From an uncultured Candidatus Micrarchaeota archaeon (GTDB taxonomy: Archaea; Micrarchaeota; Micrarchaeia; Anstonellales; Bilamarchaeaceae), in contig OY970229.1 in assembly GCA_963714085.1 (NCBI GenBank), forward strand, positions 448,001-512,000: a stretch of DNA of 64,000 bases, written 5' to 3'. Numbering within the stretch: the stretch's first letter is position 1; each line of letters begins with the position of its first letter. Shown piece after piece: positions 39,001 through 51,000 of the stretch. The position numbers were made by a program.

Positions 39001-42000
39001 CCGCTCCCCTTAGCTTATTATGATTATTCAGGTATTTAAATTCGTTGCCGTTTGTGTGCAGGCGGCATTGATTGCAGGAGGAAGGGCCTCAGAACAGCTC
39101 TGAAAGTGCAAGGTAAATTTTTCTATTTTTTTCAAACTTAGTTGCTTGTCCATTTATTAAATTGAAATCAAAAGCTAAAAATAGAAAAAAACTAATCTTC
39201 CGGCATTATTGGGCTTCTCTCATCTGTAAGAGCGAAATATGACTGAAATTTAGCCCGGTATGAAATATATTTCAGGATCCAGCTATGGAGGGCCTTGTTC
39301 CGTTTCCCCGTTATCAAAATATGAAGGAACTGAAAGAGGCAAGTTAAGACACCAATAATAGCAAGTACGATAACGACTATTAGCGATGGTATCATCCATA
39401 AGATCCTTATAATCAGCTCCCACCTGCTTGCTTTTTCAGAGAAGGCCACATTGAATTTAACGTTTTTCATAATCCAAATTAGCAAGTATAAATTTAAATG
39501 ACTCTCGATAACAAATTTTAACGCTGAAATGGGTGGCCCTCGTAGTCTAGCCTGGATAGGACGCAACCCTCCGGAGATTGATTGAGGTTTAAATACCCGA
39601 CAAAGCACCCTTTTTAACCTCTGGCCCTCAGACGCTCATTTGGTCGGACGGACACCACTGGTCTGAACTCAGACCAGATCTGAAAGCGCTAGGGCAGGAC
39701 TTCAGATCAGATATGAGTTCCTAAAAAGGCAGGAACTAAGAGTAGATTAAAATGCAGGAGGAAGATGCCGAGACCAGGGCTCGGAACAGAACATTTCCAG
39801 TCCCGAACGATTGGCTCGGTTTCCATGCCTGCACTATCATTTTGGTTCAAGTCAAACCCTGTTTTGACCTCCTAACCGAGGGCTCTTCTGCGGAGAGAAC
39901 TATTTAAAGCTAGCTCTGAGTTATTTTCCATTGCCGTTCAATTCAACCATATCCTCGTCATGAACCGGTCGGAACCACTTTTGCGCTATGAATGTCGGAA
40001 TCACTGCGCTGGTTATGACTACGGCGATAAGGACCGAGAACTGGATCTGATTGACATAACCTGCCTGATAGCCGAAAACGCTGGCAATCGTGCCGAAGGT
40101 CAACCCCGTGCTCATAAGCAGCGTCGTGTACATGCCACCTTCGGGGATGTATTTCTTGGCAAGGAAGTACACGCCTAGGAATTTCGTGATTTGTTTTAGC
40201 AGGAAGAGCGTGACAAACAAGCCGAATGCCGCAACGACCAAGGGAACAGACACCTTCATACCGTCGGTTATGAAGAAGAACGGCGTGATGAGGGCGTATG
40301 CCACGGTTCTGAGCCGATTCCTTACCGCCAGCGTTTCGGGGCTTTCCGTGAAATGCTTCGACATGGCAAGACCTAGTACGAAGGCAGGCAGGACGGCCTG
40401 GCTATCCCCTATCGCCGCGAAATAGCTGAAAATCAGTAAAAGGACAAAGATGTACTTGATTTCCGGCTCTATCACCTTGCCTTTGAGAAGAGGGTTATCG
40501 AAGACCAGATGGGAAAATTTCGTCGCGATCCATATAACTACTATTGAAACGGCGAGGAAAACCCAGGTGTAGAAGGAAGGCTTGATGAAAAGGATGGTGA
40601 GGGCTAGGACCGTGCAAATATCGGTTACAAACGTGGCAGCCATGATGAGTTTCCCCAGCTTCGTTTTCGTCAGGCCTGTCTCGACCAGCACCGAATACAC
40701 GACAGCCAGGGAGGTCGTAGACAGCGCGGCACCCGCGATGAGGGAGGCGTTCAGCGTCCAGCCAGCCATGTAATATGTGTACAGAAACGCGCCCAAGAAG
40801 GGCACGAGAAACGAAGCACAGCCTATCAGCATGCTCTCCTTGAATTTCTCCCGCATCAGGTCGACATCTACTTCGGCGCCTGCGAGGAACGTTAGTAAGA
40901 TGCTGGCGAATCCCGCAAGATAAGTCATCCACGGCTGGGCTTCGATGCCGAGATAGTTGCCTGCGATTACACCTAGGAGAATCTCGATGATGGCAACTGA
41001 AAGCCCAAGTCGAAGAGAGATGAGGCTAGCCAAAAATATCAGCATACCTGCTGCTAAAGGAATCAAAGTCGCATCCATGGAGAACACCTTTCAACACGGA
41101 TGCTAAAACGATTTCAGGAATCCGTCTTTCCCCAATCTGAATTTATGCTCCGGGTTCTTGGGGCAAACGAATACATCGTCCTTCTTGGACAACTGATAGT
41201 TCATGCTGGAATTCATGCGGCATGTCGGACATACCATCGTATACTCACCTGTCATGGGCATCTACCTCTTGAAAAGTAGAAGCTATCAGCCCGTTTGGGC
41301 GGTTTGGCTTTTGCCAGGTGAGCTTCATCGCCTATCAAAGATTACACAAATAATCTTTAATAGCATTTTGGTTTGATTGGTTTGGATTCCTGCAGTCCCG
41401 AGATTCGTATGGAGTACTACCCAAGAGTCCTGAGACCTGGTCTCTGAACATAAACATAAAGATTGGAACCTCGGTTCGAATCTCCAAAACCGCATTTTGT
41501 GTCTTCAGCTACCATAAAATCGTCGAAGAATGCCATTAGGGAACTGAAGAAAATAAAGCAGCAAAACAGAATGGAACCATTGGTTCGGTTCTTTTTCCTG
41601 CGGATTCGAACTAAAATGATGATGCAGGAGGAAGATGCCGAGACCAGAACTCGGAGCAGAGCCTTCTCTGCCCCGTCCGTTTGGTTCGAGTCTTCCTTCT
41701 CCAATAACATTTTGGTCCAGGTCAGAACAAACCTCTTGTTTTGACCTCCTAACCGAAGGCTGTTCTGAGGAGAGAACTATATAAAGCTAGGTCTCTGGTT
41801 TCGCTATTTTCCACAATGCCTCGAAATATGTTTCGAAGCTTTTAACCGCTTCCTCGCTTTCGATGAGAAACCCTTTCGGCTCGCGGGTAAAGGAGACCGC
41901 CATGGAAGGCGAGGGAGTGCAACGGCCAGTTCTCGCTGAACGTGCTGAAGCCGGATCATTGAGGGTACGCACTGCACCTAAGCTGATCGCAGTAGCGCCG

Positions 42001-48000: not shown

Positions 48001-51000
48001 GAAACTGACTGCATGGCAGTTCTGGAGCGGGAGTTACGCAGCCTGAAGCAGCTCGTTGCCGTGGGCACATGGCCTGAACCTGAACGCGGTCCACGGCAGT
48101 CCCTCTGGCAGCGATTCCTTTACTGGATATTGTATGCCCGGGCCTTTTACCCGCAAGCCGAAGTATCCGGGCATGACGTTTCTGCATACAAGCGCTTTGC
48201 CAGGCAAAACCCACAGCCCCTGGTGAGTCCTGAGTTCGAGATGCGCTCGAAGATATTCTTTCACGGTAGGACGTTCATGCTGAGGAATGCCTCCTTCTTT
48301 CGCCTGCCGGAAGATGCAAACGTGGCAGACGATACCTACCTGCCGAATTTCATCCATACGACATACGGTCCGGGTACCGTAAGGATAAGATACGACGCCA
48401 AGGTGCTCTACAAGCCATATCTCTCGCTAAGGGCGCATTTCAAGGCCTACTGGCGGGTGTACTCAGACCTTCGGAGAATGGACCTGGAAGGCGCTTTTGC
48501 GGAGTCTAGGAAGCTGGAAAAGACGAGGCTTGACTGGAAGTTCATATTTTCAAAAGGCATTGCCACGTCCCTGCAGTTCGCGATATACAGGTTCGTCGTA
48601 GGAGTTGAACGGGCGCTCTACCATATGCTTCCGGAAAAGAAGCTGGGCGAACTCTGGTATTATCAGAAAAAATAGCTGTGGATGGAGGGTGAGAATCATG
48701 CAAAAGAAGCTGAAACGAGGGCCTCCGGCCCATGAACGTCCGATGTGGCGCCTTGCACGAAACATGACGCCTTGCGCGACGGAGATAGTGAGTGGAAAGG
48801 GCATATATTTCAGGGACAGCAGTGGCAAGGAGTACATGGACCTGACCGCCCAGACACTCAACCTGAACCTCGGCCACCGCCATCCGTCCATAATGCGGGC
48901 CGTGCTTGCGAAGCTGCGTGAAGACGGATTTACCTACTACGTGTCGCCCAGATTCGGAAACCGCCACGTCTCGCAATTGGCGCAGAAGCTGGTTTCGCTG
49001 GCTCCTGAGGGTCTCAACAGGGTGAACCTGCACTTGTGCAACGGAAGCGACGCGAACGAGGACGCGATAAAGCGGGCGAGGAAGTACCACGACGGAAAGA
49101 GGATGACGATAATCTCGTTCAAGGGAAGTTTCCTGGGGACTTCCTGCGAATCCATCAGCGCGTCCGGTGGCAATTTCTACAAGGAGGCGTGCCTTGGTGG
49201 CTCAGGGCAATATGTCTTTCTGGACTCCGTGATGCCGAATAGGATACCGAAGGGGTCCAGCCTCGAAGAGGAGGTCCAATCCAGGCTCATGGACGTGGAA
49301 CAAACTATCAAAAGAAGGAGGGACATAGCCGGAATCATAATGGAGCTAGTCCCTTTCAACGCAGGAGTCATCGTCCTTCCGAGGGAATATGTGAAGGGGA
49401 TAGAGAGGATATGCAAGGAGAACGACGTGGCGCTGCTGGTGGACGAGGTCCAGACCGCCTTCGGCTGGTGCGGCGACGTATTCGCGTCGAATGTATATGG
49501 CATAAGGCCCGACGTGATAACCCTGGCCAAGGGGATGACGGCCGGCTTCCCTGCCCTGGCGGCAACAGTCTTCAAGGCGAAATACGACGTCCTGACGGGC
49601 GGGACTTCCGAGAACACATTCGGCGCTCAAACGCTCGGCTGCGTGGCGACGATCGCGAACATCGACTATCTGGTTTCGTCCGGCATAATGGATGCGATAC
49701 CAGCAAAACACGCCTTGTTCATGGAGCACCTGGAAAGGATGAAAGACGCGTATCCGTTCATAGGCGACGTCAGGGGAATAGGGCTGATGTTCGGAATAGA
49801 CTTCGTTCGCGCTGACGGAACGCCCGACATGGAGACGAACATCGACGTCTACCAGGCGGCGTTCATGCGTGGATTGTCAGTAAACGTCTCGACCTCCCAA
49901 AGGGGAAAACACAACGTGATAAGCCTCAAGCCGCCCCTGACGATAACATTAAGGGAAATAAACGAGGCTATGAGTCGTCTGGGCGATGCCATGCGCTCCG
50001 TAGCGAAGAAAAGATAATAGAGCTGCACAGTTTTTGGCATGCCTTTGACACGTCAGTTCTTTGCCAAACTTTTTTCCTAAAAAGGTAGGTGCAGAAGATA
50101 CCGAGCCATAAGAAGAACCTTGCCCACGAGATCCCAGACTAGGGCTCGGAGCATCCGCTTAGAGATTAGAACCAAAGTTCGAATCTTCAAGAGTGCATTT
50201 CGTTTTGTCAGATACAACAAATATGTCGAAGAATGATGCTAAAATAATTAGAAAATAATTCAGCAGAAAAGATTGGAATCATTGGTTCGGGTCTTTTTCT
50301 TGCAGTCCCGAACCTTTGATTCTATGCAGGAGGAAGGATTTGAACCTTCGAAGGCACTAAGCCAGCGGATCTTAAGTCCGCCGCGTTTTCCGGACTTCGC
50401 TACTCCTGCATGATTAGAAAATATTTATCCAGACTGCTATAAAAGCCTCGCTTTTTTGCCGTCGAAATAGATGTCCTCCTCGAACCGGACGCCGAAATCT
50501 TCGAAATACGCGCTCGGCTCTATGGCCATGGTCGCCCCGGCGAGCTTGTCCTTCGACTTCATGCTGAGGCGGGGGTATTCGTGCACCTCCAGGCCGATGC
50601 CATGGCCGATGGCGTGGGGCAGCTCGGGAAGATTGTGCCTCTTGAACAGCTTTCTGGAGAACGCCGTCAACTCCGAGCCGGTGTCCAGCTCCGGCATCGC
50701 GTCGATTATCTCGTTGAACACTTCCTGGAGCTTCAGGTAGACCGCCTTCTTCTTCTCCTCGCCCATGAAGAAGCACCTCGTGAGGTCCGATGAGTAGTAT
50801 TCGGCGCGCACGCCGAAATCCACGAGCACCATGCTGTTTATCTTCGCATTCCCGGTCCGGTAGTGCGGGAAGGAGGAATTGCGGTCTGCGGCCACTATTG
50901 CCTTGAACGACACGTCCAGGTCGCGCTCCAGGGTCCCGGCCATGAGCTGCTCCCTGACCTGTGATTCGGTCATGCCCTTCTTTATGTCCAGGGATTGCAA

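Follow-up and report, generated by a model that had tools for sequence, protein, structure and literature searches.

Tandem integrase-less units behind a tRNA-Leu gene of a Micrarchaeota genome form a probable CIME-like accretion array

The tRNA-Leu(TAA) gene of the Micrarchaeota genome under study (G000, 1.57 Mb) lies in a 64-kb stretch of DNA, here called the window, to which all coordinates refer. It is followed by three tandem units of 8702 bp (unit 1), 1870 bp (unit 2) and 680 bp (unit 3), each closed by a copy of the last 12-13 bases of tRNA-Leu (Table 1). These core copies end at positions 41623, 39753 and 39073, and the exact 12-mer core occurs six times in the 1.57 Mb, always at the tRNA-Leu(TAA) and tRNA-Leu(CAA) loci. 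The survey's finding of three integrase-less cassettes of 8.7, 1.9 and 0.7 kb with copies of the tRNA 3' end is borne out, and the core copies that it listed at tRNA-Leu(CAA), tRNA-Leu(GAG) and tRNA-Glu(CTC) were found within about 15 bp of the positions it gave. An arm of ~150 bp, said to close every cassette, is present in units 1 and 2, which have the core plus full arms on both sides, but not in unit 3, where the left arm is a full B-type arm and the right side is reduced to ~20 bp of arm plus the core. No integrase was detected in the three units by tblastn or Pfam, no replication genes were found in them, and the array contains no helper element; none of the three Pfam integrase matches in the genome (0/3) lies in or near it. 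The tRNA-Arg(CCG)-like remnant was called neither by Rfam nor by ARAGORN.

Table 1. Features of the array at tRNA-Leu(TAA), listed from the target gene outward
Feature	Position in window	Strand	Basis or remark
tRNA-Leu(TAA), integration target	50324..50410	-	ARAGORN, Rfam
att core, last 13 bases of tRNA-Leu(TAA)	50325-50337	-	core match
Unit 1 left arm, A-long type (~190 bp)	50128..50323	-	terminates in a copy, lacking the core, of the A-type right arm's inner part
Putative degenerate extra att-end remnant, just inside unit 1	50090..50107	-	compared by eye with aligned arm ends
Class III aminotransferase, unit 1	48698..50017	+	PF00202 E 1.6e-75; ATG start
TPR + GT2 glycosyltransferase, unit 1	46792..48675	+	domain search
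MiaB/RimO-like radical SAM protein, unit 1	45657..46787	+	below family cut-offs
Radical SAM protein, unit 1	44479..45660	+	NF045502 variant_rSAM, over cut-off
AAA_18/AAA_33 kinase-like protein, unit 1	43815..44315	-	domain search
Gfo/Idh/MocA oxidoreductase, unit 1	42803..43840	+	domain search
259-aa ORF, unit 1	41978..42757	-	no Pfam or NCBIfam match
Unit 1 right arm, A type	41636..41800	-	TATA-like box, repeated motifs, nested inverted repeats; 83% identical to right arm of G092 intA element
Core copy 1, A-right/A-left, attP-like junction	41623..41634	-	tRNA 3'-end duplicate
Unit 2 left arm, A-long type	41426..41622	-	arm comparison
Fluoride riboswitch, unit 2	41270..41341	-	RF01734, 41.6 bits vs gathering score 34
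Small cysteine-containing ORF (~50 aa), behind riboswitch	41103..41261	-	
CPA2-like cation/H+ antiporter, unit 2	39921..41087	-	domain search
Unit 2 right arm, A type	39766..39923	-	arm comparison
Core copy 2, chimeric A-right/B-left junction	39753..39764	-	core + arm comparison
Unit 3 left arm, B type	39605..39752	-	78-83% identical to arms at tRNA-Leu(GAG)
tRNA-Arg(CCG)-like remnant, 5' half recognisable, 3' half decayed	39536..39607	+	80% over 41 nt to host tRNA-Arg
DUF4389 gene, unit 3	39192..39470	-	PF14333 E 5.8e-15; ATG start
Unit 3 right end, B-type right-arm stub (~20 bp) + core copy 3 (39073-39085), chromosome junction	39073..39105	-	

The cargo named by the survey, a radical-SAM/glycosyltransferase/aminotransferase cluster and a fluoride-riboswitch unit, was recovered in units 1 and 2. 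The radical-SAM cluster, including the NF045502 protein, was found in one of 176 genomes of the order; relatives of that protein lie on a Woesearchaeota-labelled and an Alphaproteobacteria-labelled contig, and the DNA fetched around these two distant relatives contained neither arms nor a tRNA. A 50% identical relative of the kinase-like protein is cargo of an integrase-less unit in G086, and the riboswitch-to-antiporter block of unit 2 matches cargo of a G091 unit that has an integrase and other arms (79% identity over 1.4 kb). The riboswitch with its small gene has two further copies elsewhere in G000.

Comparison of the arms distinguished three families: units 1 and 2 carry type A, the left arm of unit 3 is of type B, and the arms at tRNA-Glu form a third family (C). 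Identities between loci were 70-85%, close to the 71-86% given earlier; the view that one set of arms is shared across four tRNA loci holds for these identities, but several families are involved, and the arms at tRNA-Glu match those in the window over no more than ~45-60 bp (74-77%). Arm type tracks integrase clade: in a tree of 25 proteins, the four intA rows with an A integrase-side arm form one clade (98/96) and the six intB rows with a B arm form another (100/100). No A-clade integrase was found in G000, where the nearest stands at 62-64%. The right arms of units 1 and 2 are 81-83% identical to the right arm of the G092 intA element and 55-57% identical to the resident B element's arm in reverse orientation, against 43-51% for an unrelated-DNA control, and the B arm of unit 3 is 78% identical to that of the resident tRNA-Leu(GAG) element. 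The proposal that resident integrases run the system in trans is plausible for the complete B unit at tRNA-Leu(GAG) and the C unit at tRNA-Glu, but not for the A-type units 1 and 2. At tRNA-Leu(CAA), an intact A integrase-side arm is followed by cargo where relatives have intA. Among the best 15 of 20 phage-collection matches to the integrases, the top ones (38% and 35%) were to integrases of two pleomorphic viruses of Archaeoglobales hosts, and SNJ2 did not appear.

The two congeners, G001 (88% complete) and G002 (73% complete), show how variable such loci are. Positions 39920-50080 had no match in either (0/2), in agreement with the reported absence of the 8.7- and 1.9-kb cassettes, and the claim that cargo differs between relatives stands, with variable cargo in integrase-less, att-bounded units at tRNA 3' ends. 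In G001, tRNA-Leu(TAA) had been described as followed directly by the outer arm, with an AAA/DUF4143 unit; the unit is present, but the contig ends 134 bp after the tRNA, and the far part of the array (C40) opens within a B-type integrase gene, which precedes the AAA/DUF4143 unit; the array of G001 itself includes an integrase element. The methyltransferase gene located at tRNA-Glu in G000 and at tRNA-Leu(TAA) in G002 is 94.2% identical over 692 bp, as the earlier 94% had indicated; it lies between C-type arms in the former and follows a B-type arm in the latter, where no core copy was found between it and the next chromosomal gene. A shared gene with different arms and no closing core indicates reshuffled cargo, and we therefore do not retain the view that a cassette moved between tRNA sites. 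Where the gene abuts the B arm of G002 the two have an 8-base word in common, which suggests that this cargo was joined through short homology.

This joint invites the broader suspicion that the arrays are scars of homologous or short-homology recombination, or an assembly artefact, and no contig among those listed spans the whole stretch. We consider such an origin very improbable, since the same arms adjoin intact integrases in relatives, similar arrays are present in many independent assemblies, and contigs of run X1, which may be the source sample rather than an independent one, gave depth in 30/30 bins with three single-letter differences. The only joint listed, 48499-50517 (run X3, 21-letter side), does not lie at an att site, and loose ends at 39751, 39792, 50324 and 50370 correspond to the paralogous tRNA-Leu(CAA) locus. 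No excision joint was seen at any core in three low-depth contig sets, which neither supports nor excludes excision; because excision was not observed, the case for a site-specific origin is one of anatomy.

That anatomy recurs widely. A census delimited 46 units by hand in 21 Micrarchaeota assemblies; 37 of them had no integrase, a ratio of integrase-less to autonomous units of about 4 to 1 in a sample that favours short units because both ends must lie on one contig. Among 20 integrase-less rows with B-type right arms, judged by eye, six arms were full, six extended to ~65 bp, seven to ~35 bp and one was shorter, a stepwise cut-back from the integrase side. Mosaic units were also present, two of them sharing 1076 bp at 90% on the right and differing on the left, and chimeric junctions and mixed-arm units recur. 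Exact and confined cores, the match of arms to integrase clades, the cargo in the place of intA at tRNA-Leu(CAA), the presence of unit 2 cargo in an integrase-bearing unit, the stepwise cut-back, the mosaics and the chimeric junctions together lead us to read the tRNA-Leu(TAA) locus as a tandem accretion array of CIME-like elements, with a probability of about 0.6, and they uphold the survey's central claim that integrase-less, att-bounded units accrete in tandem at tRNA 3' ends.

The closest counterpart is the tandem accretion described for CIMEs (cis-mobilizable elements) and ICESt1/ICESt3-type elements; there, in the portion of that work available (PMC5704250), the CIMEs likewise have no integration or transfer genes, keep both att ends, stack at the target's 3' end, form chimeric internal att sites and have related ICE-like elements at hand. 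Units 1-3 contain neither an integrase nor transfer genes of their own; units 1 and 2 retain attL and attR in full and unit 3 has only a stub at its right end; and their att sites are related to integrase-bearing elements that use the same target, apart from the A-long left arm, for which there is no autonomous match. The three-step CIME accretion model, as far as that source sets it out (PMC5704250), fits the array. What differs is the archaeal host, the presence of several arm families and both orientations at one target, the excess of integrase-less units in our biased sample, and one left-arm type without a known autonomous parent.

We propose that a Micrarchaeota family of intact-gene (lambda-type) tyrosine integrases recombines a circular element with tRNA-Leu genes, at their last 12-13 bases. 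Known chemistry and the nested order suggest that every integration would restore the tRNA and leave a core copy at the far end, so that newer arrivals would push older units outward. Each integrase clade appears, by association, to have its own arm pair. The array comprises two A-type CIME-like units that keep both arms whole, and a B-type unit that is older and decayed; no integrase was found in any of the three. Such units may have originated by loss of integrase genes or their replacement by cargo, with modules probably exchanged by recombination with neighbours and other elements, and units 1 and 2 could presumably be excised, or move along in cis, only if an A-clade element enters the cell.

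Decay from an ICE or IME has the stepwise truncation and the shared cargo in its favour, and the conserved, parentless A-long arm against it. That arm is conserved in six complete units from five assemblies, none with an integrase (0/6), and starts a seventh, truncated unit, also without one. An RNA model search of 99 genomes found no A-long arm followed by an integrase, and the exact pattern matched one metagenome, three genome and zero viral loci, none with an integrase, the three genome loci being units already delimited. No autonomous element was found as a parent of the A-long arm. Simple decay also fits poorly with the arms of integrase-less units, which are as intact as those of autonomous units, and with the seven units ending at the same ~35-bp boundary.

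These observations, along with arms that stay 80-90% identical across genera, the predominance of integrase-less units and the arrays in G082 and G110 (81% and 88% complete), where an intA protein query found no candidate, raise the tentative possibility that Micrarchaeota of this family maintain a dedicated lineage of non-autonomous gene carriers. Its members, mini-elements with selected arms, would be marked by an A-long left arm or a minimal ~35-bp right end and never by an integrase of their own; they would outnumber autonomous elements, pick up cargo, and be excised, re-integrated and shuffled among tRNA-Leu sites in trans by visiting cognates, much as SNJ2-type integrases excise an integrase-defective provirus in the available account of that system (PMC5861418). 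Built from T-arm and core copies of the tRNA in repeated and inverted form, their arms may also supply an outward promoter that reaches an integrase only at an attP-type junction, a Pcirc-like idea (PMC5812530). A direction matrix built from 43 tRNA upstream regions gave the arm TATA box a higher score toward the core for 10 of 11 A arms, though with small margins, and for 7 of 13 B arms. Speaking against such a lineage, no whole unit recurs among the 46 rows, which share only partial modules, the census favours short units, and the contig sets yielded no excision joint.

The survey had called the system integron-like, a capture run in trans by resident integrases; such a system might work through folded single-stranded sites. 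Integron cassettes are mostly single-ORF and co-oriented; unit 1 has seven ORFs that run both ways, and across the 37 integrase-less rows 43 ORFs are forward and 27 are reverse. The integrases are not of the IntI type, scoring 44.7 (intB), 46.0 (intC) and 47.7 bits (intA) against the TIGR02249 cut-off of 265; the entry point is the tRNA 3' end rather than an attI, and the cognate integrase of units 1 and 2 was not found among the resident ones. Recombination sites do separate the tandem units, TATA-like boxes in the arms could act like an integron promoter, and nested inverted repeats in the inner A arm let 6 of 13 arms fold at a z of -2.5 or lower. A hand-drawn two-helix structure was 78.6% paired, more than all 500 shuffles, but it was drawn from one member and the rows are related, which biases the test in its favour; RNAalifold gave no consensus attC-type hairpin in the arms (10 consensus pairs, covariation term -0.15), the three junctions (3/3) share no common fold, and inverted binding sites on duplex DNA would give the same signal. 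Integrons and CALINs, including archaeal ones, likewise carry cargo arrays with recombination sites and no adjoining integrase, in the available text of that report (bioRxiv 10.1101/2022.02.06.479319), but the absence of IntI, attI and a consensus attC fold, the tRNA 3'-end insertion point and the multi-gene, bidirectional units set the present arrays apart. We thus regard integron-like capture as improbable and abandon the label; the array is real and exemplifies a type of gene pile-up that is already known and here extends across the family, and it is not an integron.

Other systems share parts of this organization. Type II archaeal integrases of the SNJ2 type likewise combine an intact integrase at att, a 13-14-bp core at the tRNA 3' end and conserved P/P' arms, and we found such a core overlapping the tRNA 3' end, with conserved flanking arms; trans excision between close integrases is on record, but for integrases at least 81.4% identical, compared with about 62% between the clades here, and the family is described, in the sections available, as limited to Halobacteria (PMC5861418, PMC8371274). 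Tycheposons of Prochlorococcus islands likewise lie side by side, split by partial tRNA copies, with newcomers pushing older elements outward, decayed remnants and useful cargo; by definition, however, they carry an integrase, in many cases along with replication genes, and their att sites are ~40 nt long, according to what is accessible of their description (bioRxiv 10.1101/2020.12.28.424599), whereas units 1-3 have neither type of gene. Tandem elements of Thaumarchaeota and other archaea likewise reuse one site for arrays, with short att and tRNA 3' targets, but in archaeal cryptic integrated elements the integrase is the most conserved protein, and the part of that survey available does not describe integrase-less units with full arms (PMC6563490).

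Little is on record about gene gain in Micrarchaeota, and we found no literature on Micrarchaeota integrases in genomic islands at tRNA genes. The arrays show one route, in which fluoride-response, sugar-modifying, methyltransferase and toxin-antitoxin genes gather at tRNA-Leu hot spots, and the integrase clades with their matched arms form a small group of site-specific recombinases that use 12-13-bp cores. CIME-like accretion is already known from bacteria, as are arrays at reused sites in archaea; the newer point is that dedicated non-autonomous carriers may be recognisable by an arm type for which no accompanying integrase has been seen.

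Behind tRNA-Leu(TAA), copies of the last 12-13 bases of the tRNA (cores) delimit three tandem units of 8702, 1870 and 680 bp (units 1, 2 and 3), and no integrase gene was found in any of the three, which agrees with the survey's finding of integrase-less cassettes at this site. The GC content of the units is 0.55, 0.49 and 0.40, respectively, and that of the flanks 0.59. In the assembly, a single 1.57-Mb contig (87.65% complete), the 12-mer core occurs six times, four times in the array and twice at an intron-containing tRNA-Leu, the gene that the survey designated CAA; the three Pfam integrase matches lie in the elements at tRNA-Leu(GAG), tRNA-Glu(CTC) and tRNA-Asn(GTT). 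Short T-run/A-run palindromes, perhaps a small repeated element, are found just behind cores and inside a tRNA intron. The table also lists a stretch behind tRNA-Lys(TTT) and an element at tRNA-Asn(GTT).

Coordinates of the array and of related features (positions without a contig name are those of the window, G000:C1 448001-512000; L numbers are fetched loci)
Feature	Position	Strand	Remark
tRNA-Leu(TAA)	50324-50410	minus	
Cores of tRNA-Leu(TAA)	ending at 41623, 39753, 39073		
tRNA-Arg(CCG)-like remnant	39536-39607	plus	tRNA-length; adjoins outer end of B arm, opposite strand
TATA-like boxes	41770-41790; 39895-39915		
T-run/A-run palindromes	50060-50090; L146, L063, L040		
Fluoride riboswitch with small gene, further copies	G000:C1:171232-171499; G000:C1:1325496-1325727		no antiporter
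Core-less C-type right arm	G000:C1:1312506-1312586		beside AAA/DUF4143 gene
Stretch behind tRNA-Lys(TTT)	G000:C1:1472726-1473487		761 bp; closed by 16-base tRNA 3'-end copy; no arm of the families studied
tRNA-Asn(GTT) element	G000:C1:1258496-1289255		30.8 kb; more distant integrase; ~34-bp direct repeat
Outer half of A right arm, reversed	L013:6222-6341 (G024); L074:1702-1818 (G131)		directly behind tRNA-Leu genes
PAC2-family gene, G002	L011:1-420, against 36137-38991		directly behind methyltransferase
Genes missing there in G002	36522-38991		three genes
tRNA-Leu genes, G002	L011:1240-1300; L012:2300-2350		T-loop insertions of 30-40 bases, besides the usual intron position
Gene-free unit, G001	L008:2458-2640		~180 bp; B-type arm, short end, core; between tRNA-Leu(TAG) and integrase gene

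All-against-all comparison and profile searches sorted the arms into families A, B and C, named with the integrase clades intA, intB and intC. Units 1 and 2 have a left arm of ~190 bp (A-long) and an A-type right arm of ~165 bp, the type found at the far end of the Leu(CAA) unit as well; unit 3 opens with a B-type left arm, as in the Leu(GAG) elements, and ends with ~20 bp of a B-type right arm; and the Glu arms (C) have ~45-60 bp in common with the A right arm. The arms reported as shared across tRNA sites really exist, but they fall into several families and are not interchangeable copies. Profile searches revealed weak deeper homology among the right arms of A and C and the B left arm in reverse, and likewise between the arms that face the integrase in B and C; the families thus seem to be variants of a single design that can stand either way round with respect to the tRNA. 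Two related assemblies have the A right arm's outer half in reverse, which suggests an origin of A-type elements through inversion of an end. In all three families the arm on the side away from the integrase has a TATA-like box at its outer end; should this box read toward the core, circularisation would bring it to a position upstream of the integrase. Within the tRNA-Glu element there is a third C-type right arm without a core, which hints at one more unit buried there.

Arm type goes with integrase clade. In a midpoint-rooted tree of 25 integrases (the rows scored included some used to train the profiles), four rows with an A integrase-side arm formed one clade (98/96), which also took in a fifth row with upstream DNA left unclassified in that scoring; six rows with a full B arm formed another (100/100), and the resident Glu integrase fell within a third (100/99). 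The integrases' closest relatives are mostly labelled Micrarchaeota, which suggests that the host belongs there too. With the arm of the intA element in G092, a related assembly, the right arms in the window share 81-83% identity, much the same as the 80% between two intA elements; with the resident B element's arm, reversed, they share 55-57% (control 43-51%). Since the best match to intA in this genome is only 62-64% identical and these right arms are A-like, the Leu(CAA) unit, like units 1 and 2, appears to lack a cognate integrase in the assembly, and the proposal that resident integrases run the array is not supported for units 1 and 2. Among SNJ2-type integrases at least 81.4% identical, excision in trans is on record (PMC5861418).

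The array had also been described as integron-like. That description is not supported: tested by criteria from bioRxiv 10.1101/2022.02.06.479319, the integrases score 45-48 bits with the IntI profile (cut-off 265). ORFs in integrase-less rows of our census run both ways (43 forward, 27 reverse). In the inner A arm the T-arm and core of the tRNA do recur in inverted form, ~60 bp upstream of the real core and most clearly in G092 and G131; folding gave z of -2.5 or lower in 6 of 13 arms, and a hand-drawn arm structure (78.6% paired) beat 500 of 500 shuffles. However, because RNAalifold retained only 10 pairs (covariation -0.15) and inverted binding sites would yield the same folding pattern, an attC-like mode is not supported, if still conceivable.

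Matches to the A junction were found in 12 of 176 genomes of the order, and matches to the B junction and the intA protein in 25 and 33, respectively, of 99 genomes of the family. Our census comprised 46 rows from 21 assemblies, delimited by hand from fetched loci with both ends on one contig; it left out the Asn element, the empty unit of G001 (~180 bp) and every unit that a contig end interrupts, favours short units, and includes three rows with an unclear right end and one that is two units. An integrase match was present in nine rows (eight full, one fragment) and absent from 37. No whole unit recurred among the 46 rows; the shared pieces are modules. Unit 2 cargo recurs at 79% over 1.4 kb in a G091 unit that has an integrase and other arms, units of G092 and G101 have 1076 bp in common at 90% (by our reading of the ORFs a nucleotidyltransferase/HEPN-like pair, plus the right end) with different left cargo, and AAA/DUF4143-like genes are 48-65% identical. 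Among 20 integrase-less rows with B-type right arms, judged by eye, six arms are full, six are cut to ~65 bp and seven to ~35 bp, and that of unit 3 is shorter. That the integrase-less units form a lineage of dedicated non-autonomous carriers is a rather unlikely account, which stays viable because the A-long arm is kept in six complete units of five assemblies, all with different cargo and all lacking an integrase (and opens a seventh, truncated unit), a search for an autonomous parent with this arm found none, and the same ~35-bp right-arm boundary recurs in seven units.

Neither congener, G001 or G002, matches window 39920-50080, in agreement with the survey, which found no match there to the 8.7- and 1.9-kb cassettes. 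In G001 an arm, of B type, indeed follows tRNA-Leu(TAA), but the contig stops 134 bp on. A second G001 contig is assigned here from its core and the gene downstream; it opens within a B-type integrase gene, after which come a core, a B-type unit with AAA/DUF4143 cargo and a final core. The methyltransferase said to sit as a cassette at two tRNA sites is 94.2% identical over 692 bp between G002 and the tRNA-Glu copy here. The gene was exchanged, but apparently not as an intact att-bounded cassette: the G002 copy lies behind a B arm, to which it is joined through a shared word of 8 bases, with no core ahead of the next chromosomal gene. The table also lists the gene content behind this copy, two tRNA-Leu genes of G002 and a gene-free unit of G001.

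Unit 1 encodes a class III aminotransferase, a TPR-GT2 glycosyltransferase, two radical SAM proteins, a kinase-like protein, a Gfo/Idh/MocA oxidoreductase and an unknown ORF, a set consistent with a sugar- or cyclitol-modifying pathway; its first radical SAM gene was found in one of 176 genomes of the order, and partly syntenic clusters occur on two contigs, labelled Woesearchaeota and Alphaproteobacteria. Unit 2 carries a fluoride riboswitch, a ~50-aa ORF and a CPA2-like antiporter; the riboswitch and small gene have two further copies in the genome. In unit 3 a DUF4389 gene is accompanied by a tRNA-Arg-like remnant, and a tRNA-3'-like fragment also lies behind the B arm at the resident Leu(GAG) and in L010.

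We favour reading the cores, the arms, the lack of an integrase, the association of arms with integrase clades and the modular cargo as accretion of units resembling CIMEs, cis-mobilizable elements that keep att ends without integrase and transfer genes. By their anatomy the Leu(GAG) and Leu(CAA) units of this genome allow the same reading, but they are not independent support for it. Core joints were not seen in three contig sets of low depth over window 36000-53500; X1 contigs, possibly from the source sample, gave depth in 30 of 30 bins of this interval. Arrays at reused integration sites are known in archaea (PMC6563490) and Prochlorococcus (bioRxiv 10.1101/2020.12.28.424599), tandem elements of archaea have been proposed to exchange modules (PMC8371274), and decayed remnants adjoin tRNA genes in Acidianus (PMC3119797). 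By accretion, repeated site-specific integration at the tRNA 3' end would have been accompanied by loss or replacement of integrase genes, and neighbours may have recombined to leave chimeric junctions, such as that at 39753; this would be the same mechanism as in the CIME accretion model, as outlined in PMC5704250.
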